Source: Shigella phage ESh21. From it: a DNA stretch of 64,000 nucleotides. Positions 1,957 through 50,226 of this stretch are shown here, piece by piece. How positions within the stretch are numbered: the stretch's first letter is position 1; the number at the start of each line of letters is the position of its first letter. The position numbers and the translations under genes were made by a program. Below the pieces are notes generated by a model. It saw only the letters and a list, made by a program, of their open reading frames with translations, did no database searches and had not been told where the DNA came from. The stretch is from the sequence record ON528731; one strand, written 5' to 3'.

Positions 1957-2751
1957 ATGGGCATTGTAAAAATCATTAAAGGTGATATCTTTGAAGCCTT
2001 TGATAACCAGAAGTTTGATATCATTGGTCACGGATGCAACTGCATGAACTTGATGGGTGCAGGTATTGCAGCAACAATCTCAAAACGCTACCCAAAAGCT
2101 TATGAGACTGACGCTGAAGTTTATGAGACAGTTGGTGGTGAGAACCATAAACCTGTACATCTTATGCTTGGCAATATCTCTGTAGCACGTTTCAAGCAGG
2201 GTCGAATTGCTAACCTATACACTCAGGTTATCACTGGTAAAGATGCACGTTACAATGCCTTAGAAGCAGCTTTGCAGCGTCTTAACAACTACTGCAAAGT
2301 AAACCAGCTTAAGAAGGTTGGTCTTCCAATGATTTGTGCAGGGATTGGTGGTCTGGATATCTTTGCAGTTACTTCAATCATTAACCAGACAATGAAAGAT
2401 GTAGACGTTTACCTTTATGTCTATGAAGAAACAATGCACAGACGACTAACCAATAACATAGTTGGTTGGAACAACTACAGTGAACCTCAACACTTTGATG
2501 GTGTCGCAGTTGTGAAGGATAATCAAGTTACACTACGGGTAAAACGGAAGGGTAAGGTGCATAAAAGTAACCCTCCGGTTGAGAAGTACTCTCTGAGTAA
2601 CGCTCAAGTTACCCACCCGTTACATGACCACTGTTTGAGAGCAGTAACATTTGGTGACAATGCAAGTGTTTACCTTCTTGCACAAGACCATGAAGAAGCT
2701 GATAAGATTATCTCTGATAAACGTTTTAGCTTTGTTGAAGCACGTAACTAA
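1957..2751 (+). CDS. Macro domain protein (ADP-ribose binding / ADP-ribosyl hydrolase-like) with C-terminal extension
   Basis: GDIF...FDIIGHGCNCMNLMGAGIAATI and KVGLPMICAGIGGLD resemble macro-domain motifs (GDIT, VNAAN..GGGV..AI, PxIxTGxxGxP). Confidence 0.65.
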   Translation: MGIVKIIKGDIFEAFDNQKFDIIGHGCNCMNLMGAGIAATISKRYPKAYETDAEVYETVGGENHKPVHLMLGNISVARFKQGRIANLYTQVITGKDARYNALEAALQRLNNYCKVNQLKKVGLPMICAGIGGLDIFAVTSIINQTMKDVDVYLYVYEETMHRRLTNNIVGWNNYSEPQHFDGVAVVKDNQVTLRVKRKGKVHKSNPPVEKYSLSNAQVTHPLHDHCLRAVTFGDNASVYLLAQDHEEADKIISDKRFSFVEARN

Positions 2752-2811
2752 GTAACTTTGTAAAGTATTCACAATAGAGTAAGCCTTTCTTGTTCTTGCA
2801 AACACAAGGTA

Positions 2812-3008
2812 AGGAGGGCTTTTTCATTTCAAAATCGTGCAGATAAAGGTCTATAAAGAAATCTGTAGAGTGAAATCAAAGTCAACTCCAAAGGGAAAAT
2901 TCATTTTCAATTTGTGCAGGTGAACTCCAAAGAGCTTTTTCATTTCAAAATTGTGCAGAGAAAAATCAGGTCGGGCAAGAAAATTCATTTTCAATTTGTG
3001 CAGGTAGC
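2812..3008. repeat. Four tandem copies of a ~40-bp repeat (core TTTCATTTTCAAATTGTGCAG)
   Basis: Copies near 2822, 2901, 2936, 2981 alternating two variants. Confidence 0.7.
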
Positions 3009-3016
3009 CAGATATA

Positions 3017-3057
3017 GCCAGCCAGCCCCACCACCCCCTCTTACTCCCCTTCCTCCC
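3017..3057. repeat. C-rich polypyrimidine tract
   Basis: GCCAGCCAGCCCCACCACCCCCTCTTACTCCCCTTCCTCCC in otherwise AT-rich DNA. Confidence 0.6.
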
Positions 3058-3178
3058 AAAAGTCAAGAGAAAAATTTGTAGCGGATTAAAAAATAATTCT
3101 TGACTAGTTTTCTGTTTAGTGCTATGTGTACGCGCCCGTTTCATTCACAACATGCCAAAAATATTTTTAAAAATTTGC

Positions 3179-3207
3179 TTGACTCTAAAAAACCAGTCTT
3201 ATAGTAT
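3179..3207 (+). promoter_or_regulatory. Sigma70-like promoter for first early cassette
   Basis: TTGACT - 17 bp - TAGTAT. Confidence 0.55.
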
Positions 3208-3257
3208 TTGCATCAACGGGAAGCAATCCCAACAATCCTAAACTGGAGATTCAAAAA

Positions 3258-3464
3258 ATGTTATATCAACGGGAATTAATGATTGTCGATAATAACAAAA
3301 CTAAAAAACGTCGCTTCTTTATGTTAATCTGTGACGTGTGGCAAAGAATATCTGAAAAGGATTATGACAAGTATGTTGATACATCAATCAGGTCGGATTG
3401 TTATTTGACAAATCACACAAGACAGTTTACAAGACATACAGCAGTTTACTACTATGACGTTTAA
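3258..3464 (+). CDS. Hypothetical early protein
   Basis: Conserved leader CCTAAACTGGAGATTCAAAAA immediately upstream of ATG. Confidence 0.5.
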   Translation: MLYQRELMIVDNNKTKKRRFFMLICDVWQRISEKDYDKYVDTSIRSDCYLTNHTRQFTRHTAVYYYDV

Positions 3465-3476
3465 AAGGGCTTGACA

Positions 3477-3638
3477 ATGATTAAAGAAAGCAATGTAATA
3501 CGTTACAAGGATTTAGACGGCTACCCTAAAACGGGAAAAGTTTTCTATCTTTACAAGTCAGTGATGGGTAATGACTGCATAGCCCTAACAAATGGCGACA
3601 AAATAACCATGAAAGATTTTATAAAAATTATTGCATAA
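3477..3638 (+). CDS. Small hypothetical protein (53 aa)
   Basis: ATG 13 nt after upstream stop; below ORF-track cutoff. Confidence 0.3.
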   Translation: MIKESNVIRYKDLDGYPKTGKVFYLYKSVMGNDCIALTNGDKITMKDFIKIIA

Positions 3639-3643
3639 AGTGC

Positions 3644-3696
3644 TTCACATGGGGTTTAAAAGGTAGTATCTTAAGCCCCAGATAAAGAACTTTATC
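3644..3696 (+). promoter_or_regulatory. Promoter-embedded stem-loop cassette plus palindrome GATAAAGAACTTTATC
   Basis: TTCACA -35 in 5' arm, hairpin GGGGTTTA/TAAGCCCC, -10-like TATCTT, then 16-bp palindrome. Confidence 0.5.
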
Positions 3697-3726
3697 ACTA
3701 AACAATCCTAAACTGGAGAATCTAAA

Positions 3727-4110
3727 ATGAAAAAATACTATATGCCAAAGTTTATCAAGAAAGAAAACTTTCGCGATGCTCTGGAAAATTCCATGAATGA
3801 GCAATTCAAAGGCAAAATAATTGTTGTACACGCATACAATTTTAAGTATGATGTAAACGGTAACAAGATAAACCACTACACCGTTACAATGTTAGATGAT
3901 ACACTCTCAGGAGAAAAAGCCATCATCAATGCACTGGCTGCACGTGGTAAAACGTTAATCCGTTGTGATAAACGCCGCTATCAGGGTGGCACTTATGGTT
4001 ATGAGGATGCAATCTATCATCTTGCTAATATGGGTTACAATGTCGAAAAAGCTGGCGTATCTCAAATGATTGGTAGTGATGGGTATGTAACAGATTTCAA
4101 AATTAACTAA
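3727..4110 (+). CDS. Hypothetical early protein
   Basis: Conserved leader upstream. Confidence 0.55.
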   Translation: MKKYYMPKFIKKENFRDALENSMNEQFKGKIIVVHAYNFKYDVNGNKINHYTVTMLDDTLSGEKAIINALAARGKTLIRCDKRRYQGGTYGYEDAIYHLANMGYNVEKAGVSQMIGSDGYVTDFKIN

Positions 4111-4118
4111 TAAAGTGC

Positions 4119-4172
4119 TTTACATGGGGTTTATGAGTTGCTAGTATAAGCCCCAGATAAAGAATTTTATCA
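4119..4172 (+). promoter_or_regulatory. Promoter-embedded stem-loop cassette plus palindrome
   Basis: TTTACA - 17 bp - TAGTAT overlapping hairpin GGGGTTTAT/ATAAGCCCC; palindrome GATAAAGAATTTTATC. Confidence 0.55.
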
Positions 4173-4197
4173 CTAACCTAAACTGGAGATTCTAAAA

Positions 4198-4710
4198 ATG
4201 AAATCAGTCGAAAGCACCTTTGAAGTTCAAAAAGAAAAATTTACTATCATCTTTGAAGCAATGAATGTTTATGAGCCTTCCCATTGTGTGGATAACTGGC
4301 AATTCACTGATGAGCATAAAGGAGGAGTTACAATCAAAGTTAAAAACTCAGAACGTAACGGCTACAAATATGCAATTCCTATGCACTATGCGCTTTCACA
4401 GCTTGCCAGTGATTACGCAAAACAGGGAAGGGATAACCCATCATTAGCCGCTTACAAGAGCTTACAAGATGAACTAGAAAGGGATTTAGGGGCTAATAGC
4501 TACATTCTATACGCCTCAGTAGTTGACGCTGAAGGCAACACGGTTTTAAATAGTTTTTCCCTTGCGTATGGTTTTGATTGGTGCTATCTTGACGGGGAAG
4601 ATTTAGATTCACGCTTAAAAGAGGAAGTAAGCAATTCAGGTGCTGAAGAGGAAGTTTTAGAGCGCTTGGAAGATTTAAAAGATAGTGTGATGAATATCTT
4701 TAATATCTAA
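4198..4710 (+). CDS. Hypothetical early protein
   Basis: Conserved leader upstream. Confidence 0.55.
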   Translation: MKSVESTFEVQKEKFTIIFEAMNVYEPSHCVDNWQFTDEHKGGVTIKVKNSERNGYKYAIPMHYALSQLASDYAKQGRDNPSLAAYKSLQDELERDLGANSYILYASVVDAEGNTVLNSFSLAYGFDWCYLDGEDLDSRLKEEVSNSGAEEEVLERLEDLKDSVMNIFNI

Positions 4711-4716
4711 AAGTAC

Positions 4717-4769
4717 TTTACATGGGGGTTATCAAGTTGCTAAGATAGCCCCAGATAAAGAGCTTTACC
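4717..4769 (+). promoter_or_regulatory. Promoter-embedded stem-loop cassette plus imperfect palindrome
   Basis: TTTACA, hairpin, GATAAAGAGCTTTACC. Confidence 0.45.
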
Positions 4770-4795
4770 AACAATCCTAAACTGGAGAATCTAAA

Positions 4796-5086
4796 ATGAA
4801 AATTCCTGCTAATGTACGCTCAAAGTTAAGCCAATTACTACAAAACATTTCTTTTGTAGAATCTCATAGACGTTCACAGGATGTTATAGAGTGGTATCAT
4901 GGGAAGATTAACAAGAAAGAAGTTTTAATCTGTATTTGGAACTTTCAAAAAGAACATGGCAAGCCATTGCTTCAGGTTGACATTTATGATAATACTAGCA
5001 AATCAGCAGTAAAATCAAAAGCTGATATGATTGATTCATATGAAATTAGTCACACTGGTAGATTATCACACGTTGGGAAGGTTTAA
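4796..5086 (+). CDS. Hypothetical early protein
   Basis: Conserved leader upstream. Confidence 0.5.
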   Translation: MKIPANVRSKLSQLLQNISFVESHRRSQDVIEWYHGKINKKEVLICIWNFQKEHGKPLLQVDIYDNTSKSAVKSKADMIDSYEISHTGRLSHVGKV

Positions 5087-5087
5087 A

Positions 5088-5414
5088 ATGTTACTTTCTG
5101 GTATCGCAATTCTGATTTCAATTGTGGCGCTATATAAAGCTTATCAAGCCTCAGACTATGCAGATAAGGCTATCACAAGGAAAGTTAAAATAAACCTTGT
5201 AAGTAGCTTCTTAGAGCGTTTAAGCGTGGAACAATTACAACGTTTAGAGATGGGATTCAGGTTTAAGGCAGACACTTATCAAATCAGTGATGTTTTATCC
5301 GGTAACTTTGAGCTTGTTAATGATTACAATGCGTTACTAAATGCTATTCAAGCTACTGATTTAAAAGAATATTATCCGGTTATTGCACAAGAAATTAATA
5401 AACGCAAAAAATAG
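5088..5414 (+). CDS. Hypothetical membrane protein (N-terminal TM helix)
   Basis: Start moved to ATG 5088 with GGAAGG SD; the longer ORF from 5031 overlaps the upstream gene. Confidence 0.45.
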   Translation: MLLSGIAILISIVALYKAYQASDYADKAITRKVKINLVSSFLERLSVEQLQRLEMGFRFKADTYQISDVLSGNFELVNDYNALLNAIQATDLKEYYPVIAQEINKRKK

Positions 5415-25079: not shown

Positions 25080-25110
25080 CTTCTAAGGGTTCTTACGAGA
25101 GTCCTTAAAT

Positions 25111-25187
25111 GTGGCCTTATCATAAATGGATAATGACCCATGCTGTGAACATGGTCTATACGGGTTCGATTCCCGTAGGTCACCCCA
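25111..25187 (+). tRNA. tRNA-His (anticodon GUG)
   Basis: Anticodon stem CCATG/CATGG, loop CTGTGAA, discriminator C; no encoded G-1. Confidence 0.65.
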
Positions 25188-25193
25188 ATTCAA

Positions 25194-25270
25194 TAGCTCA
25201 ATTAGCTTATATGGTTAAAGCGCGTGTCTGAAAAACATGAGAACAGGGTTCAAATCCCGATGGGCTACCA
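25194..25270 (+). tRNA. tRNA-Phe (anticodon GAA)
   Basis: Loop CTGAAAA; T-stem weak; 3' boundary uncertain. Confidence 0.5.
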
Positions 25271-25285
25271 ATTTATAGGTGCATA

Positions 25286-26020
25286 ATGAAAGAGATGACA
25301 GGACAAGGTAAAGAGATTTTCAGTCTCCTTAAATCCGGTAACGGGTTCTCTAACCCTCTTATTACTGGTGCAGCAGTTCTTGGTGGTACAGTTGCTGCTT
25401 CTCAGTCATTAGTAACTTCTATTGGTTCTGTATCAGACCCAGCTACCCAGCAAATTCTTATTGCTGCTGGCTTGACAACTGCCTTACTAAGCAGCTTTAC
25501 AACAAGCCTTGGTAGCACCACTTCAACGACAACTACTTTAACTGACTATGGACAGAAGTCTGTAGATGAGTTTTCACAACGTATGCAAGTAGCTAAAGGT
25601 TACTCTAACGTTATGGGAGCAGCAGGTGAACAAGTCGGTTGTACACCGTTTAGTGGAATCATGGGAGTTGCTACAGAGTACGGTAACAAAGCTATGGATT
25701 TGATTAATACATCCATAGACGCTGTAAATGGCGTTCTAAGCGATTTACAAGATGCGATTGATAAAGGACTAGACACTATCTCTGAACTCGCTACACAAGC
25801 TGTTACAGCGATTAATGAGGGTATGGCAAAGATTACTGCCTACGCTAATGAAGTGGCTCAGATGATTGCAGATGAAGCAGCCCTGATTGCTGACTACCTT
25901 AAAACGAATATTAACGGTTTTCTTGCTAATGTCTTACCAGATTGGTTTGATGATGCTTGTAAAACTGGTGTGATTGATACAATCGCAACTCCAGAGATGA
26001 AAGATGCTCTAAACAAATAA
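25286..26020 (+). CDS. Hypothetical protein with Ala/Gly/Ser/Thr-rich N-terminal half
   Basis: 244-aa ORF between tRNAs. Confidence 0.55.
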   Translation: MKEMTGQGKEIFSLLKSGNGFSNPLITGAAVLGGTVAASQSLVTSIGSVSDPATQQILIAAGLTTALLSSFTTSLGSTTSTTTTLTDYGQKSVDEFSQRMQVAKGYSNVMGAAGEQVGCTPFSGIMGVATEYGNKAMDLINTSIDAVNGVLSDLQDAIDKGLDTISELATQAVTAINEGMAKITAYANEVAQMIADEAALIADYLKTNINGFLANVLPDWFDDACKTGVIDTIATPEMKDALNK

Positions 26021-26023
26021 TTT

Positions 26024-26116
26024 GGAAGATTAACCCTAAAAGGTAAGGGAGCAGTTTGCTAAACTGCCAGTAACCGAGAAATCGGCGTACCAGTTCAAGT
26101 CTGGTATCTTCCTCCA
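26024..26116 (+). tRNA. tRNA-Ser (anticodon GCU), long variable arm
   Basis: Acceptor GGAAGAT/ATCTTCC perfect, anticodon stem GCAGT/ACTGC, 93 nt. Confidence 0.7.
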
Positions 26117-26123
26117 AATTAAT

Positions 26124-26200
26124 GTGTCGGTGGCAGAAATGGATTATGCGCCTGTCTGCAAAACAGGTATATAAGGGTTCAAGTCCCTTCCGATACTCCA
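26124..26200 (+). tRNA. tRNA-Cys (anticodon GCA)
   Basis: Anticodon stem CCTGT/ACAGG, loop CTGCAAA, T-arm AAGGG-TTCAAGT-CCCTT. Confidence 0.65.
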
Positions 26201-42894: not shown

Positions 42895-43310
42895 TGAAGA
42901 CAGATTTTGCAATTAATCTTGGTGGAGACTACGTAGCGAAAATGGGTAATGACTCTGTATACGTAGCCCACGGAGATTTAAAAATTACGGGTAATCAAAT
43001 TAGAATTATCCCAGAAGATGATAAAGCTACACAGGTAGCACAGAGATTACATATTAGGTGTCTTCTAAGGGCTGGAGAAGTATTCTTTAATACCTCTGCT
43101 GGGTTCCCTTATTTGCAGCTTGCTAAGTTTAAACAGAAGACCTCTATTTTTGATAATTATATGAAAGGTTACCTTGTTGAAACGAGAGATGTAACAAACA
43201 TCTACAACTACTCTTCAACAATGGACAATGCAATGAGAAAAGTGTCAGTCAGATTTAATGCAACGACAACTGCTGACAATGTTGAAATTAATACAGAGGT
43301 AAACATTTAA
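42894..43310 (+). CDS. Baseplate wedge protein (gpW/gp25-like, putative)
   Basis: 138-aa ORF directly upstream of J-like protein. Confidence 0.4.
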
Positions 43311-44779
43311 TGGCTGGATTAACAACTACAGGTTTACAAACAAAAAGATATCAAGAAATCTTGGATGATGTTAAAGCAAGTCTGTATAGAGATATCTCAC
43401 CAAACCTTGATGTTTCTGAAGATAGCGAACTTGGGTTATTCTTAGCTTCTGTTTGCCGAGGTCTTGCAGACGTTCATGAAATCTTGTCAGAAATCTATGA
43501 TGGTGGTACTATTGACAAAGCTGAAGGATTCAGTTTAGATGATGTAACAGCTTTGAATGCTGTATACAGATATGTGGCACAGGCTACAAGAGGTCAAGCT
43601 GAGTTCACTGGTAATTCTGGTGCTCCTGTACCAGCCACTACAAGATTAAGAAGCACAGCAGGTAACATCTTTTACCCTGTGTCAACTTTCACACTGACTC
43701 CATCTTATTGTGTAGAGGCAAACTTAGAAGTTAACTCTTTACGAACAGATGCAAACTATGTCATTATCATTGACAACATTGAGTATTCATATCATCCGAC
43801 TAGCTCTGACACCATTACAACATTGCTACAGAAACTTGCAGACTCTATCAATGGCGGTATTGTTGCAAAGGCTGAAGTTATTAATGATGGTTCAGTGCTA
43901 AGAATTTATAAAGACACTGGAGATATCATTGCCAGAACTAACCCTATGGTTGTGACTGCAACGACATTCTTAACATTTACAAAGATTACCTCAATCAGTG
44001 ACGTTGTAGCAGATGAAACTGGAGCTATCCAGACTCTGGCAGGAACCTTGATTGAGATTGAAACAACTGTAGATGGTCTTGACAGTGTTTTCAACAGATA
44101 TGACTTGACAACTGGTCGTGATGAGGAAACTGACACAGAACTGAGACAACGTTACTTAGAATCTTTGGCTGTTACTGGTGTGGGTACTCTGGATGCTATT
44201 GTAGCTGCTGTAAAGAGAGTTCAAGGTGTGTCTGACGCTTCTGGTGTAGAGAATGACACTGAGACAACAAACTCTGATGGTCTTCCTCCGAAGTCTTTTA
44301 AGATTGTTGTAGTTGGTGGTCAGAATGATAATATTGCACAGGCAATCTGGGACACGAAACCTGCTGGTATTCGCCCATTTGGTTCAATCTTTGGGACTGC
44401 ATATGACTTAGGTTCTCTCCCTCATGAGGTTTACTTTAGCAGACCAATGCCTAAATATGTTTTTGTCAAGGTTGCTTACTCTCTTTACGATGAAGAAACT
44501 CTTAACATCCCTGAACAGGATATTCACGACAGGATTGTTCAAGGCATTAATGCTTATGGTAGAACATTGAAAGTGGGTAATGATGTAATCCCTAATAGAA
44601 TCTATGGACATATCTATGACGTGATTCAAGGTATTGAAATTAATGAGATTAAGGTTGCACTCTCAAATAACCAAGCAATCCCACCTGCTGAGGGCCAGTA
44701 CACTACTTCAAGAATCACTATTGATGGTGACCAGTACACTGTTTGGGAAAGCTCACAGTATACAATTGCCAAGGAGTAA
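43310..44779 (+). CDS. Baseplate J-like protein (putative)
   Basis: 489-aa ORF in baseplate block. Confidence 0.45.
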
Positions 44780-44781
44780 CA

Positions 44782-45639
44782 ATGTTTAAAAAGATTGAAA
44801 ACTTTTATGAGAAAACATTGGACGAAAGAACTGTAACTCAATTCAAAGACAAGTTTATCTACACAAGCCTATTGAAATCTATCACAGATGAGTTACAATT
44901 ATTAGAGGATATTAGTAATCAGTTATATACTGAAAGGAATATTCGTGTAGGTGTTGGCACACAACTTGATAACATCGGGGCTTTAATTAAAGTCCCTAGA
45001 CCTATTGGTGCTGATGATGACACTTACAGAGCTATCCTCTACATTCAAATTTTCTTAAGACGTTCTGACACTACACCAAGCTTTTTACAAAAAGCTGTCA
45101 TGACTCTTTACGATGCCTCATTCAGCCAGATTTTTGAGCATATTACGCCAAAGACTGGTGGGATTGTTGTCCGTGTAAACACTCGTAATAATGTGTTAGA
45201 TACAGCATACACGCTTTCTAAGATTGCTGCAACAACTATTGGTTCAGCAGTTATTCTTAGAGATGTTACCTTAAATGGTACTGCTTGGACTCCTGTAGAG
45301 GTTGCTGATTCATCTCTGGCAATCACTGATGAGAGCAACAACTGGTTCGTAACCAACACTAACAAGGGTCTAATTACGAACAACACAGGTGGCTCTCTAG
45401 AAGCAAATAAATTAGGTAGTTTTGCAGATGCAGGTGTAAGAGATGGTTATGTCAGAGTTGATAAAACTGGTGGCAGTACCAGTAAAGATTATTTAAAAGT
45501 CAGCAAAACAAACAATAGCAACGACTATTTTATTGCTGGTAAAGAAACAGTAGCAGGTGGTGATTATGGGGTTATGGCAGAAGTCGCCCAAATCGTCAAA
45601 GGCAGAAAAGATAAATCTCAACAAGAAGGAAGTTCATAA
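44782..45639 (+). CDS. Baseplate/tail fibre-associated protein (hypothetical)
   Basis: Start set to ATG 44782 with AAGGAG SD; longer ORF overlaps upstream gene. Confidence 0.45.
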
Positions 45640-45938
45640 TGTCTCTTTCATGGTCTACAGACACAGTGGATGCTGATGGTAACCAGCTTAAAGTTTTACC
45701 ACCTCCAGAAATTCAAGCCACTGGCCTATTAAGGGGTGAGCCTATGGGTCGTCAGTGGTTCAACTATATTATCAACTATTTGCTTAATAAAGTAAATGGT
45801 ACGGTTGGAGAGGTTCGTTCATTTGCTACGGAGCAACCTGATTTAGTTGCCAATGGTTGGGAATTAATTGACACAGTAACAGGAACTGCACACACCAGCA
45901 CTACTAACCTTTACACATATGAATATAAAGGGAGCTAA
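45639..45938 (+). CDS. Hypothetical protein
   Basis: ORF in track. Confidence 0.45.
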
Positions 45939-45940
45939 TA

Positions 45941-47116
45941 ATGGCAGTCGGTGAAATTCAAATTAGTGCATTACCTCAAGCCTCATTACCTATTGATTTA
46001 AGTGATATCTTTCACCTTAAGCAAGGTATTGAGGATAGGCGATGCACACTTGAGCAATTACTTGCTCCACACGCATCTTTGAGAAATAACCCACACGGTG
46101 TTACAAAGATTCACGTAGACCTTGGGAATGTTGTTAACGCACTCCAATTAGTGGCTGCTAATAACTTGTCAGATGTGGTCAGTGTTGAAGAGGCTAGACA
46201 GAATCTTAATATTCTATCAAGTGATGAAGTCAATACTCTTATCCAGAACCACATTAATGACAAGAATAATCCTCACAACACCAACAAGATTCAAGTAGGT
46301 TTGTCTAATATCCAAAACTGGACATATTCAAACTCTTATTCTGAAGATGCTGATAAGTATGCTACTGCAAAAGCTGTGAATGCTTTATATAGAGCTATTC
46401 AGGATAGCTATCCAATTGGTACTATTCATTTATCAGTTAACCCTGCGAACCCAACTACATATTTACTTTGTGGTGGTACTTGGGAGTTAGTTTCTAAAGG
46501 AAGGTCTCTTGTTGGCTATGACACAGATACAAGACCTGTAGAATCAGTATTTGGTTCTGCTACTGCAACACTTACACAAAATAACATTCCAAGTCACACA
46601 CACTCTGTGTTGCTAACTGGTGGTGGACACTCTCATAATGCAACAGTAGTAATTTCTAGCTTTGACTATGGGATTAAGAACACATCAAGTTTTGATTATG
46701 ATTCTAAGGCCACAAATGACTCTGGAAGCCACGCTCATAACGTTAATGGTTCTGTAAGCAGTGCTGGTAGTCACAGCCACAGGATTCCATTGAGGGGTTC
46801 TGACAGGGGTGGTGTGAATGCTATCACAGCATCGGCTGATGCAGGTATTGGTAATGCGTCATATACAGACTTTGATGGGGTTCATACACATACATTCAAC
46901 GTTAACTCTTCAGTTGGTGGTAACCACTCTCACAGTGTGTATATTGGAGCACATGGACACAGTGTTGTAATTGGTTCGCATGGACACTCTGGTACTGTGA
47001 CAGTTCAATCTTCTGAACACACTCACTCAGGTACAACTGGTGCATTTGGTGCTGGACAAGCATTTAATATTGAGCAACCTTCTTATGTTGTATATGTTTG
47101 GAAGAGAACTGCGTAA
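45941..47116 (+). CDS. Tail fibre protein with His-x-His repeat C-terminal domain
   Basis: Repeated HTHS/HSHN/HSHR/HGHS motifs; C-terminus ...VWKRTA shared with 47162..49537. Confidence 0.6.
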   Translation: MAVGEIQISALPQASLPIDLSDIFHLKQGIEDRRCTLEQLLAPHASLRNNPHGVTKIHVDLGNVVNALQLVAANNLSDVVSVEEARQNLNILSSDEVNTLIQNHINDKNNPHNTNKIQVGLSNIQNWTYSNSYSEDADKYATAKAVNALYRAIQDSYPIGTIHLSVNPANPTTYLLCGGTWELVSKGRSLVGYDTDTRPVESVFGSATATLTQNNIPSHTHSVLLTGGGHSHNATVVISSFDYGIKNTSSFDYDSKATNDSGSHAHNVNGSVSSAGSHSHRIPLRGSDRGGVNAITASADAGIGNASYTDFDGVHTHTFNVNSSVGGNHSHSVYIGAHGHSVVIGSHGHSGTVTVQSSEHTHSGTTGAFGAGQAFNIEQPSYVVYVWKRTA

Positions 47117-47161
47117 TTATTTTATAAGGGGCTGTGTAGCCCCTAGAAAGAGGATTTATAA

Positions 47162-49537
47162 ATGGCTGAATATAAGCTAAGTGAGCTAAACAGTATTGAC
47201 ACAGTTCGCTCAGAAGATTTACTTCACCTAAGAGTCATCAAAAGGTCTGATATGCTTGGTGATGAAGACCGTAAAATGACCTATGCAAATTTCCTTGCCT
47301 CTTTCAAACTAGAAAGATTCTTACAACTAACTGGTGGAGATATGGTAGGGAATCTTGGCATCGTTAAATTAAGATACGGTGGAAAAGACTTATTAGACCC
47401 AACAGGTTCTTCTGAGGTTATTCTTGGTGACACTGCCAAAACCTTTAGAATTAATGCGAGTGCTTTAAGATTAACTGTAAACGATGCCACAAGGTCTGCA
47501 ACAGTTTATCACACACTTAATAAACCATCTCCTAATGAATTAGGTATGAGAACTAACACTGAAAATGATGCAAGATATGCTATGAAGGAAACTGAAAATA
47601 CTTTCTTGGCAAGACAAATCATTAATATCAACGGTGTTGGTCTAACACTTAAAAGTATCTTACCAGATGGTGGAGCATATATTGAAGCAAGGGATTCAAA
47701 CAATGCTTTAAGATTCACAGTTGGTAACTTGACTTCTAGTACTGATGTTACATTAGTTAATAGTAAGGGTGCTACGTTGACTCTTGGAACAAACTCTGTT
47801 AGTGTTGATAAGAATTTTGAAATCAATGGACAGGTTCAGCCTAATAACTGGAATAACCTTGATGCAAGATTCTTTACACAGACTGCTGCTGACCAGAGAT
47901 TTGCAAAACTTAATGCAAGTAATAACTTTGTTGGGGTTAACAATTTCAATGGTAAGACTTATGTTATTGCAGATAGTAATGCACTTAACTTAAGAGCGGT
48001 TACAGAGAATGCTGCATTATTTATGCGTGGTTATAACAGCGCTGGGACAGGAACTTGGTATGTAGGTCAACCAGATGGTACGCAGTCTGAGATTGTTTTA
48101 GCAAACCAGATGACAAATGTTAACTTGAAAATTGCTACAGAGTTTTCATTTAACAAAGCTATCAATGTAGCTGGTCAGGTAAAACCAAGTGACTTTTCTA
48201 ACTTTGATACAAGATATGTTCCAAGCTCTTTGACGAACGTTCTTGCAAGAACTAATGCTGAAAACGTTTTTACTAGTCCACAGACTATCAATACTGACAG
48301 CGACAATCCTTTTAGACTACAGACAACAGTACAAGACTCTGGAATCTACATGTCTGCACATAATGCTAATGGGAGCAGGAGATGGTGGTTGGGTATTGGT
48401 GGTGCTGGTCAAAACAATGTGGTACTTAACAATGATGTAACAGGAAAGGCAATCAATATTGGTACTGATTTAGATGTGAATACACATGTAAATATTGTTG
48501 GACAAGTAAGACCAAGCGATTGGTCAAACTTTGACTCAAGATACTACACACAATCTGCTGCAAACTCAAGATATATGTTGTCTGGTGTATCTGGAACTGG
48601 AACAGAAGTAGGTGATGGCACAGGTGTTGCTTGGGATGCAAAAACAGGTTTGTACAATGTTACAAGTGCAAGTGGTGGTTCATCTCACTTAGTTTACCAA
48701 ATGCACCTTGGAATTGGTGCATCTACACCTTCTGCACAGCTTAGGTTCGAATACAAAAATGGTGGAATCTACTATAGAACAGCAAGGGATAGTGTTGGTT
48801 TTGAGGAGTTTTGGACTAAAATCTATACAGATAAGGCTAAGCCTACACCTTCTGAACTTGGTGCTTACACCAAGGCTGAAGTAGACCAACGTATTGCTTC
48901 CGCTGTAACTGATGCCACAGACCTTAAGAAAGTGTATCCAGTTGGTATTGTGACGTTCTTTGCTTCTAATGTCAACCCAAATACAGCTTTCCCAGGCACT
49001 ACTTGGACTTACTTAACTGAGGGTGCAAACAGAACTATTAGGATTGGTTCTGAAAATGGCTCTGATGTGAAAGGTCTTGGTGGTGCTGATACGGTTGCAT
49101 TAAGTGTTGGTCACATCCCTGCACACACTCACGGCTTCTCTGGGACAACTTCTTGGTTTGACTATGGAACTAAGTACACAGATGGTCAGGGTGCTCACGA
49201 CCATGACAGAGGTAATATGGAAATCTCTGGTAACTTTGGATGGTTTAGAAGTGATAATAACTCGTTCTACGTTGCAGACGGTGCTTTTGCAATGAGTGGT
49301 AGCCAAGGTGGGCATAGCTGGACAGGTTCTAACTTCACTTATGGTGCGCCAGTTAACTTCTATGCTTCCAGAACTTGGACAGGTAGAACAAGTTGGGTAG
49401 GTGCTCATGCTCACGGTGTAGGTATTGGTGGACACAACCACACATTCAGTGGTGACACTGGTGCGACTGGTTCTGGTGCAGCATTCAGTGTTCTTAACAC
49501 TTACATTAAACTAATGGCTTGGGTAAGAACTGCATAA
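47162..49537 (+). CDS. Long tail fibre protein with His-x-His motifs near C-terminus
   Basis: 791 aa; AHTHGF, AHDHD, AHAHGVGIGGHNHTF motifs; C-terminus ...AWVRTA. Confidence 0.6.
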   Translation: MAEYKLSELNSIDTVRSEDLLHLRVIKRSDMLGDEDRKMTYANFLASFKLERFLQLTGGDMVGNLGIVKLRYGGKDLLDPTGSSEVILGDTAKTFRINASALRLTVNDATRSATVYHTLNKPSPNELGMRTNTENDARYAMKETENTFLARQIININGVGLTLKSILPDGGAYIEARDSNNALRFTVGNLTSSTDVTLVNSKGATLTLGTNSVSVDKNFEINGQVQPNNWNNLDARFFTQTAADQRFAKLNASNNFVGVNNFNGKTYVIADSNALNLRAVTENAALFMRGYNSAGTGTWYVGQPDGTQSEIVLANQMTNVNLKIATEFSFNKAINVAGQVKPSDFSNFDTRYVPSSLTNVLARTNAENVFTSPQTINTDSDNPFRLQTTVQDSGIYMSAHNANGSRRWWLGIGGAGQNNVVLNNDVTGKAINIGTDLDVNTHVNIVGQVRPSDWSNFDSRYYTQSAANSRYMLSGVSGTGTEVGDGTGVAWDAKTGLYNVTSASGGSSHLVYQMHLGIGASTPSAQLRFEYKNGGIYYRTARDSVGFEEFWTKIYTDKAKPTPSELGAYTKAEVDQRIASAVTDATDLKKVYPVGIVTFFASNVNPNTAFPGTTWTYLTEGANRTIRIGSENGSDVKGLGGADTVALSVGHIPAHTHGFSGTTSWFDYGTKYTDGQGAHDHDRGNMEISGNFGWFRSDNNSFYVADGAFAMSGSQGGHSWTGSNFTYGAPVNFYASRTWTGRTSWVGAHAHGVGIGGHNHTFSGDTGATGSGAAFSVLNTYIKLMAWVRTA

Positions 49538-49623: not shown

Positions 49624-49818
49624 ATGCCAACCATTCTAGCAATCCTCTTGAAAAATCTTGGGGCATTCTTCTGGAAGCTTCTACTTTCTCTTCTTAGCGA
49701 ATACATGATTGAAAAAGTGTTCTTCAAGCTTGCAAGATACCTTGCGAGTAAAACAGACACACCTATTGATGATGAATTTGTAGATACCTTGGAAAAGGCT
49801 TTTAAGGGTGAAAAATAA
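49624..49818 (+). CDS. Small membrane protein (holin-like candidate)
   Basis: 64 aa with N-terminal hydrophobic/amphipathic segment. Confidence 0.35.
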   Translation: MPTILAILLKNLGAFFWKLLLSLLSEYMIEKVFFKLARYLASKTDTPIDDEFVDTLEKAFKGEK

Positions 49819-50192
49819 TGAAGTGGATTGAAGAGGCTTTTAAGAACAACATTGGCGCAATTGTTGTAGGTATTTTCAGTGTAATTGGTATGTACACTAC
49901 GATGCAGGTCTCTGATGGAAAGCAAGAAGTTTCTATCAACACAAAGTTACAACAGTTGGATGGTTACTCAAAAGGTAACTATTCAGCTATTCGTGATTTA
50001 CAGTCTGATATGAAACTCCTTCAGTTAGGGATGGAAAACCAGAAAGTGCAGTTAGAGAACGTTAAAGGGGAAAACGCTAAGTTGACCAAAACCCTTGATA
50101 AATTCTCAGATAGTGTGAACAACTTAGCACAGTCTGTATCAGCTTTACAAGCAATTACCGAACAAAATACACAGAATGTTAAAAAGAAATAA
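49818..50192 (+). CDS. Membrane-anchored coiled-coil protein
   Basis: N-terminal TM segment IGAIVVGIFSVIGMY then coiled-coil-like region. Confidence 0.4.
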   Translation: MKWIEEAFKNNIGAIVVGIFSVIGMYTTMQVSDGKQEVSINTKLQQLDGYSKGNYSAIRDLQSDMKLLQLGMENQKVQLENVKGENAKLTKTLDKFSDSVNNLAQSVSALQAITEQNTQNVKKK

Positions 50193-50197
50193 TGCTA

Positions 50198-50226
50198 AGG
50201 CTCCCGTAAAAAGGAGCCTTTTTTGT
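50198..50226 (+). terminator. Rho-independent terminator ending the structural operon
   Basis: GGCTCC-CGTAAAAA-GGAGCC followed by TTTTTT. Confidence 0.7.

Follow-up and report, generated by a model that had tools for sequence, protein, structure and literature searches.

Two probable Mooglevirus tail fibres with T4 gp37-type His-x-His tips in Shigella phage ESh21

Within a window of 64,000 nucleotides from Shigella phage ESh21 (sequence record ON528731), which is the whole stretch of DNA analysed here, two neighbouring open reading frames (ORFs) at positions 45941-49537 encode proteins that we refer to as P1 and P2. P1 (45941..47116, + strand) has 391 amino acids (aa) and matches the tail fibre family phrog_2097 (E=1e-125), and P2 (47162..49537, + strand) has 791 aa and matches the tail fibre family phrog_4277 over its full length (E=0). 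The orthologue of P1 carries the annotation 'tail fiber' in phages ESh22 and Sf14. The initial annotation, made from the letters alone, had placed two tail fibre genes here, and this agrees both with the family matches and with the position of the orthologues, which cryo-electron microscopy (cryo-EM) locates on the baseplate. Judged by its nucleotide sequence, the source phage is a Mooglevirus (Ounavirinae), one of the Felix-O1-like myoviruses that infect Shigella, E. coli and Citrobacter: at the nucleotide level the region 45941-49537 is 99.2% identical to Shigella phage ESh22, 93.5% identical to Sf14, and 93-95% identical to Sf13, Sf14, Sf17 and Citrobacter phage BSwM KMM2, all of which belong to Mooglevirus within the Ounavirinae. 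We consider it highly probable that the two genes encode the short (P1) and the long (P2) homotrimeric tail fibres of this Mooglevirus, each with a tip of the type found in gp37 of phage T4.

The C-terminal parts of both proteins are marked by His-x-His (HxH) motifs. P1 contains 25 histidines and nine such motifs, at aa 219, 230, 264, 278, 315, 329, 338, 347 and 360, arranged in clusters of four and five, and P2 contains four, at aa 655, 679, 749 and 758, arranged in two clusters of two. The clusters had been noticed in the initial annotation, and their number lies far above that in shuffled sequences. Shuffling of the whole proteins gave a mean of 1.5 motifs for P1 and 0.3 for P2; nine motifs were reached in none of 20,000 shuffles of P1, and P was 2e-4 for P2. 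When only the His-rich C-terminal domains were shuffled, the corresponding results were 0/20,000 and P=4.5e-4. Exactly nine motifs are present in 34 of the 39 P1 homologues, the P2 homologues have four to six, and most histidine columns of the motifs are invariant or nearly so in the alignments of both families. An origin of the motifs as a compositional accident of His-rich sequence is thus ruled out by the within-domain shuffling together with the conservation of the motifs.

The two C-termini (...YVVYVWKRTA in P1 and ...KLMAWVRTA in P2) had also been described as related, and the relationship is confirmed and extends well beyond these residues. P1 aa 153-391 and P2 aa 588-791 share 28% identity in BLASTP (E=1e-13), and a profile-profile comparison with hhalign supports the homology of the C-terminal 200 to 240 residues or so with E=1.5e-30. 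The middle parts of P1 and P2 are unrelated, and similarity between the N-termini is limited to a weak motif, D..HL..EDR[RK]xT (28 columns, hhalign E=0.004, probability 9%). The designation of the two proteins as paralogs, as first proposed, can therefore be retained for the C-terminal tip module, for which alone sequence comparison appears to demonstrate it, and not for the remainder of the chains.

P1 begins with a putative baseplate-binding region (aa 1-47, 45941..46081) that contains an EDRRCT motif and is the most conserved part of the family, with an entropy of 0.6; this role is suggested by the baseplate-binding domain of phage Bas63 and by the discussion of the EDRKCT/EDRKMT motifs of Sf14 (PMC12609058, PMC11821841). 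In the shaft that follows, the motif NNPHxxxKIxVxLxNxxN occurs twice, at 46085-46138 and 46265-46318 (aa 49-66 and 109-126), and its N-P-H and L/V/N columns are invariant across the P1 family. A collar with the 'tail collar' fold of T4 gp10 and gp12 comes next (aa ~153-228, 46397..46624), assigned from the Pfam family Gp10_C (aa 156-267, E=8.5e-17), which is the only Pfam match of P1, and from matches to the T4 gp10 chains 2FKK and 5HX2. The first HxH motif (IPSHTHS, aa 219) is located inside this collar. The descending strand of the needle (aa 229-281, 46625..46783) carries the motifs at 230, 264 and 278, which are aligned to AHSHS, GHTHS and EHSHY of T4, and leads to a hypervariable head loop (aa 282-313, 46784..46879) that has the length and position of the head segment of T4 gp37. 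The ascending strand (46880..47113) carries the motifs at 315, 329, 338, 347 and 360, is aligned to NHSHT, DHSHS, AHTHT and SHGHT of T4, and ends in a C-terminal return (...FNIEQPSYVVYVWKRTA). In the alignment of the 39 homologues the entropy peaks at aa 281-300 with 3.04 bits, that is, between the motifs at 278 and 315, and ranges from 0.6 to 1.6 elsewhere; the last 30 residues belong to the best conserved ones (entropy 0.57).

The tip assignment of P1 is carried by its match to a solved structure. P1 aa 147-363 align with residues 19-228 of the receptor-binding tip of T4 gp37 (PDB 2XGF) at E=4.7e-23, and the alignment spans collar, needle and head. It is free of gaps from aa 246 to 348, where six of the seven HxH motifs of T4 fall on those of P1 at 264, 278, 315, 329, 338 and 347, and the segment between the clusters is as long as the head segment of T4. 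The seventh motif of T4, AHSHS, pairs with that at aa 230 in a gapped stretch just upstream, and two motifs of P1 that exceed the T4 set (aa 219 and 360) are situated near the collar.

Given the Gp10_C match, P1 could also be read as a wedge or adaptor protein similar to T4 gp10, whose collar clamps another fibre in the way that gp10 holds gp12, so that P2 alone would bind a receptor. In line with this, P1 matches the gp10 chains 2FKK, 5HX2 and 2FL8, phrog_958, a family of baseplate wedge subunits, matches P1 aa 66-221, and the record of phage Silverhawkium labels the P1 orthologue 'T4 gp9/10-like'. However, the gp10 matches are confined to the collar (P1 aa 142-228 against gp10 aa 439-521, E~1e-7) and are far weaker than the match to the gp37 tip, P1 is devoid of the N-terminal domains of gp10 and has 391 aa compared with 602, and a hypervariable head loop would not be expected in an internal adaptor. 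Moreover, the cryo-EM maps of Sf14 and Bas63 show the orthologue of P1 as a fibre of 430 Å along the sheath (PMC11821841, PMC12609058). We regard this reading as very improbable, and a P1 of the gp10 wedge type was rejected as largely refuted by the published maps.

P2 is assembled from more parts. Its Pfam matches are three stretches of gp37_trimer, then gp37_C (aa 477-586) and Gp10_C (aa 589-789). The putative N-terminal baseplate-binding region, with the motif EDRKMT, and the shaft together occupy 47162..48586 (gp37_trimer in three stretches, E=2.8e-44). The shaft consists of three beta-helix repeats of ~112 aa, each of which closes with the linker GQVxPxxxxNxDxR[FY] (aa 223, 338 and 447); in the family alignment the G, Q, P, N, D and R columns of all three linkers are invariant and the bodies of the repeats are variable. 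A knob similar to the fibre protein S of phage Mu follows (aa 476-586, 48587..48919; Pfam gp37_C, PF12604, E=5.4e-18), of which aa 476-581 match aa 327-429 of the Mu tail fibre S (8JU3) at E=2.2e-21. The collar (aa 588-660, with the motif at 655 in the sequence IPAHTHG) and a short descending needle strand (with the motif at 679) are encoded by 48923..49207 and are assigned from Gp10_C, from homology to the P1 collar and from a match of aa 632-767 to 2XGF. Between the HxH clusters lies a variable head of ~65 aa (aa 683-747, 49208..49402) of the type RGNMEISG...ASRTWTG, which is about twice as long as the head of P1 and unrelated to it in sequence. The ascending strand with the motifs at 749 and 758 and the C-terminal return (...AFSVLNTYIKLMAWVRTA) complete the protein (49403..49534); H749, H751, H758 and H760 are invariant in the P2 family, together with the C-terminal columns.

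Directly or by homology, it can be stated that P1 and P2 each end in a module of the T4 gp37 type, in which the chain leaves a collar along a needle, forms a small head and comes back to the collar. Because the chain doubles back, the head is formed by the loop that separates the two HxH clusters (P1 aa 282-313, P2 aa 683-747), and the C-terminus in ...RTA consequently sits at the collar and not at the tip. This refines the initial annotation, which had seen the HxH repeats themselves as the probable receptor-binding domains. A receptor-binding tip of the gp37 type stands, with matches to 2XGF of E=4.7e-23 for P1 and E=4e-4 for P2; the motifs, however, build the shaft of the needle and not the binding surface, and the loop between the clusters is the physical tip and the presumed contact. 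As P1 has nine motifs, P2 four and T4 seven, the needle of P1 is predicted to exceed that of T4 in length and the needle of P2 to fall short of it.

Several observations weigh against this interpretation. The match of P2 to 2XGF is weak (aa 632-767), and its Gp10_C score is 25 bits, just under the Pfam cut-off of 27. AlphaFold2 models, built as monomers from the family alignments, were of low confidence, with a predicted local distance difference test score of 63 for P1 and 53 for P2 and predicted template modelling scores of 0.26 and 0.23, and were not used as evidence; low confidence is to be expected when intertwined, obligate trimers are modelled as monomers. With the low-confidence P1 model, Foldseek gave nothing in the PDB below E=1e-3, the only hints being to the gp10 collar 2FL8 (weak, probability 0.96 over 52 columns) and to the C24 protein 6OV6 (E~2). 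Finally, the sharpest mosaic boundary among close Moogleviruses lies in the middle of the P2 fibre. The strongest divergence of P2 being at aa 376-559 and not in the head, host specificity may not reside only in the tip.

This mosaic cassette (48289..48838, + strand) was delimited by blastn breakpoints and sliding identity, the latter being 0.46-0.59 within the cassette and 0.95-1.00 in the flanks. Compared with Sf14, positions 48289-48517 (P2 aa 376-452) are replaced by unalignable sequence, and compared with Citrobacter phage KMM4 the whole of 48289-48838 (aa 376-559) is replaced, by a longer segment that results in a fibre of 849 aa. The left breakpoint, 48288/48289, is common to both comparisons, and the cassette is bounded on this side by the conserved linker GQVxP...DxRY. 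Amino acid differences between P2 and its close relatives cluster at aa 361-450 and 481-570.

The cassette raises the alternative that Moogleviruses discriminate between hosts mainly through lateral contacts of the P2 mid-fibre, made by the third beta-helix repeat and the Mu S-like knob (aa 376-559), and that the HxH tip is chiefly a module for folding and trimerisation. The exchange at 48289-48517/48838 is sharp while the tip shares 98-100% identity with the one of KMM4 (recorded host, a Citrobacter sp.), and the amino acid differences to close relatives are concentrated at aa 361-570. The authors of the Bas63 study remarked that conservation was unexpectedly lacking among the beta-helix repeats (PMC12609058), and those of the Sf14 study suggested receptor contacts 'more proximal than the tip' (PMC11821841). 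On the other hand, the P2 tip (49241-49390) is also only 81% identical to Sf14 at the nucleotide level, heads vary across the subfamily and are swapped with T4-type heads whose receptor role is accepted for T4, and variation in the mid-fibre could equally reflect sheath contacts or escape from antibodies or host defences. We therefore hold this alternative to be unlikely, and it is improbable in the stricter form that the host range of Moogleviruses is switched mainly by recombinational exchange of P2 aa 376-559 and not by the HxH tip. If true, it would imply that this T4/Mu hybrid fibre binds a receptor at a lateral site.

Exchange of the heads themselves is seen over larger distances. The needle and head of the long fibre of Escherichia phage REP10 (P0155, aa 651-764) are ~90% identical to T4 gp37 (E=9.5e-51 to 2XGF). 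One homologue of the short fibre (P0033) has a T4-like head, and another (P0049) has the RGxMEI...ASRTW head type of P2. Tip cassettes are therefore exchanged between Tevenvirinae and Ounavirinae, and likewise across the two fibre genes. With P2 aa 640-791 as the query, many Felixounavirus fibres match over its first 42 aa and no further.

To return to the preferred reading, in which both proteins are fibres with gp37-type tips, a mechanism can be proposed by analogy with T4, Sf14 and Bas63, in keeping with what is observed here, namely homology to a solved tip, conserved histidine pairs, a hypervariable head, cassette exchange and gene context. Each fibre would be a trimer, anchored by its short N-terminal domain at the outer edge of baseplate and wedge or at the 99-aa platform protein encoded next to P1. 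Each HxH motif, contributed by three chains, would supply six histidines to one octahedral site for a metal ion (iron in T4) on the axis of the fibre, and up to nine such sites are predicted in P1 and four in P2. The sites would act as staples that hold the six strands of the needle together and stiffen it, and the head loop (P1 aa 282-313, P2 aa 683-747) would touch the host, most likely at core sugars of the lipopolysaccharide (LPS).

Support for LPS as the receptor comes from relatives only. The literature on them indicates the LPS core (PMC11821841, PMC8594841), and a waaH mutation was found in Shigella resistant to phage Henu12 (PMC12671091). Since the heads of P1 and P2 differ in length and have no relation in sequence, it is probable that each fibre recognises a different structure, which we put forward as a hypothesis only; that the head loops bind LPS core sugars is likewise hypothetical. 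The dual receptor specificity proposed in the initial annotation is in fact a published hypothesis, as the abstract on Sf14 speaks of two fibres 'which may bind different receptors' (PMC11821841).

The two fibres could act in parallel, or in sequence with reversible and then irreversible binding as in T4, and sequential use on LPS, as T4 makes of its long and short fibres, is no less possible than dual specificity. In its more explicit form, which we entertain as a tentative but serious alternative, the long fibre would scan the surface and bind a variable outer structure reversibly, and the short fibre would then bind the conserved inner core of the LPS of the same cell irreversibly and trigger contraction. 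The fibres differ in length (430 Å vs 630 Å), and Sf14 infects many O-serotypes with common core structures (PMC11821841). The P1 family also looks less diverse, with 68 clusters at 90% identity, several of them with hundreds of members; P2 has 1366 matches, a number that shared shaft domains inflate, and almost every one of the 120 listed is a cluster with a single member. Identity to the Felixounavirus counterparts is 66-69% for P1 and 55-60% for P2. Yet the head of P1 is hypervariable as well, so that P1 is not simply a conserved anchor, and in both published maps both fibres are retracted along the sheath, whereas the short fibres of T4 fold under the baseplate.

The surroundings of the two genes are those of a structural operon. 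P1 and P2 end the late structural operon of the + strand, and the order of genes in the window is the same in ESh22, Sf14, KMM2, KMM4 and Silverhawkium. Upstream are the gene of baseplate J / wedge 2 (43310-44779, + strand; Pfam Baseplate_J) and that of wedge 1 (+ strand), which is named after the annotation in relatives and has its probable start at ATG 44782 (285 aa). Mechanically, the ORF of wedge 1 opens at TTG 44743, before the baseplate J gene has ended (window positions 44743-44781); the PHROG profile matches from residue 14 of this longer ORF, in agreement with ATG 44782. Directly 5' of P1 is a gene for a 99-aa protein (45639..45938, + strand; phrog_4141, E=6.6e-61), which by synteny is the orthologue of Sf14 gp51 and, from the gene order, probably the counterpart of gp25 of Bas63, the 'LTF platform' on which the long tail fibre (LTF) is seated (PMC12609058).

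Downstream of P2 are a small hydrophobic ORF of 64 aa (49624-49818, + strand) and an ORF of 124 aa (49818-50192, + strand) whose N-terminal hydrophobic segment precedes a coiled-coil-like region; both ORFs match PHROG families of unknown function only. The Sf14 record labels the orthologue of the latter, gp55, 'putative holin'; gp55 is marked 'Yes' in the protein table of Sf14, apparently meaning that it was detected in virions, which would be odd for a holin (PMC11821841). A GC-rich hairpin with T-runs on either side (50197-50220), resembling a bidirectional terminator, sits exactly between the late operon and the genes of thymidylate synthase and dihydrofolate reductase, which lie 3' of it on the - strand and converge on the operon. 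A scan for promoters and terminators found 10 promoter-like sites against 12.3 expected and 3 terminator-like sites against 2.6, neither being above the shuffled expectation. It provides no evidence that the two fibre genes are regulated separately, and this hairpin is the only notable site.

Two further observations were made in passing. The window contains 25 tRNA genes clustered at 21465-26200 (+ strand), among them two for tRNA-Met, three for tRNA-Leu, and two each for tRNA-Lys, tRNA-Gln, tRNA-Arg and tRNA-Ser; such a cluster is typical of Ounavirinae, and Sf14 was reported with 26. The long-fibre gene of KMM2 (L003, 2722-5097) is annotated as two coding sequences, 2722-4512 and 4528-5097, and its DNA is 95% identical to the window; the split probably reflects a frameshift, be it a sequencing error or a real truncation that removes collar, needle and head.

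The two-fibre system, the T4 gp37-like HxH tips and the hypothesis of two receptors were already published in 2025 for near-identical proteins, and our analysis adds little biology to them. It confirms that a T4-type metal-binding fibre tip can be recognised by a reader who has no tools and only the sequence. The head loops of P1 and P2 and the cassette at P2 aa 376-559 are segments that could be exploited for engineering the host range of Mooglevirus phages towards Shigella, E. coli or Citrobacter hosts, which is of modest practical value.

Among the described systems, Sf14 is the closest, and P1 and P2 are, by sequence, orthologues of its gp52 and gp53 as well as of the short tail fibre (STF) gp26 and the LTF gp27 of Bas63. 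The lengths of gp52 and gp53 (391 and 792 aa) compare with 391 and 791 aa here, and Sf14 shares the genus and the succession of wedge proteins, 99-aa protein, fibre 1, fibre 2, 64-aa ORF, 124-aa ORF and thymidylate synthase. P2 has 88% amino acid identity to the Sf14-type cluster (P0088). It differs from Sf14 in the other cassette at aa 376-452 and in the head region with its 81% nucleotide identity, without a difference in kind. In the study of Subramanian et al. (Commun Biol 2025), gp52 ('long tail fiber') and gp53 ('longer tail fiber') are virion proteins and were docked by cryo-EM as the 430 Å and 630 Å fibres retracted along the sheath (PMC11821841). Bas63 (JohannRWettstein), of the sister genus Felixounavirus, has the same arrangement of two fibres, described in Sci Adv 2025 with a T4 gp37-like collar, an HxH needle and a head at which the chain doubles back, giving a six-stranded needle (PMC12609058). 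Its STF and LTF have seven and six HxH motifs (PMC12609058), compared with nine in P1 and four in P2, and the head of P2 is of the longer RGNMEI...ASRTWTG type. The physical presence of the orthologous fibres on the baseplate has been shown by mass spectrometry and cryo-EM (PMC11821841, PMC12609058), and we infer from this orthology that P1 and P2 would be the two baseplate fibres of ESh21.

With T4 gp37 the likeness is in the tip, which has the same layout of collar, needle and head, and all seven HxH motifs of T4 align with P1. The structure of this tip (2XGF) was reportedly solved by Bartual et al. in 2010, with seven HxH motifs said to coordinate seven iron ions, and the C-terminus of gp37, which we take to be ...IVRLA, resembles the ...WKRTA and ...WVRTA of P1 and P2. 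Coordination of iron by the T4 motifs along the needle is also described in the Bas63 study (PMC12609058). P2 differs from gp37 in having only four HxH motifs and a head that is longer and unrelated. Each of P1 and P2 is a whole fibre made of a single protein, unlike gp37, which is the 1026-aa distal half of a fibre of four proteins and depends on the chaperones gp38 and gp57A. P1 and P2, with gp37-type needles and nine and four predicted metal sites, may fold without a gp38-like chaperone. The downstream ORFs at 49624-49818 and 49818-50192 were considered as fibre chaperones and matched no family of known function, the rest of the window being unscreened for relatives of gp38 and gp57A.

The collars of both proteins belong to the fold family of T4 gp10 and gp12 (Gp10_C, PF21939; 2FKK). 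The collar of gp12 binds zinc through one HxH motif per chain, and the first motif of P1 (IPSHTHS) and that of P2 (IPAHTHG) fall within the part of the collar that is aligned to gp10. T4 gp10 itself is a wedge protein with other N-terminal domains and without a needle, and P1 and P2 resemble it in the collar only. In the S protein of Mu (gp49), the domain shared with P2 precedes an invertible receptor-binding C-terminus that is assembled with the chaperone U, whereas in P2 a collar, needle and head of the T4 type follow it. P2 is Mu S-like only at aa 476-581 and has a T4-type C-terminus, unlike fibres of phages Mu and P2 with an adjacent chaperone gene (Mu U / P2 G type), and the ORFs downstream match no chaperone family; the Sf14 genome contains no homologue of the Mu chaperone according to its authors (PMC11821841).

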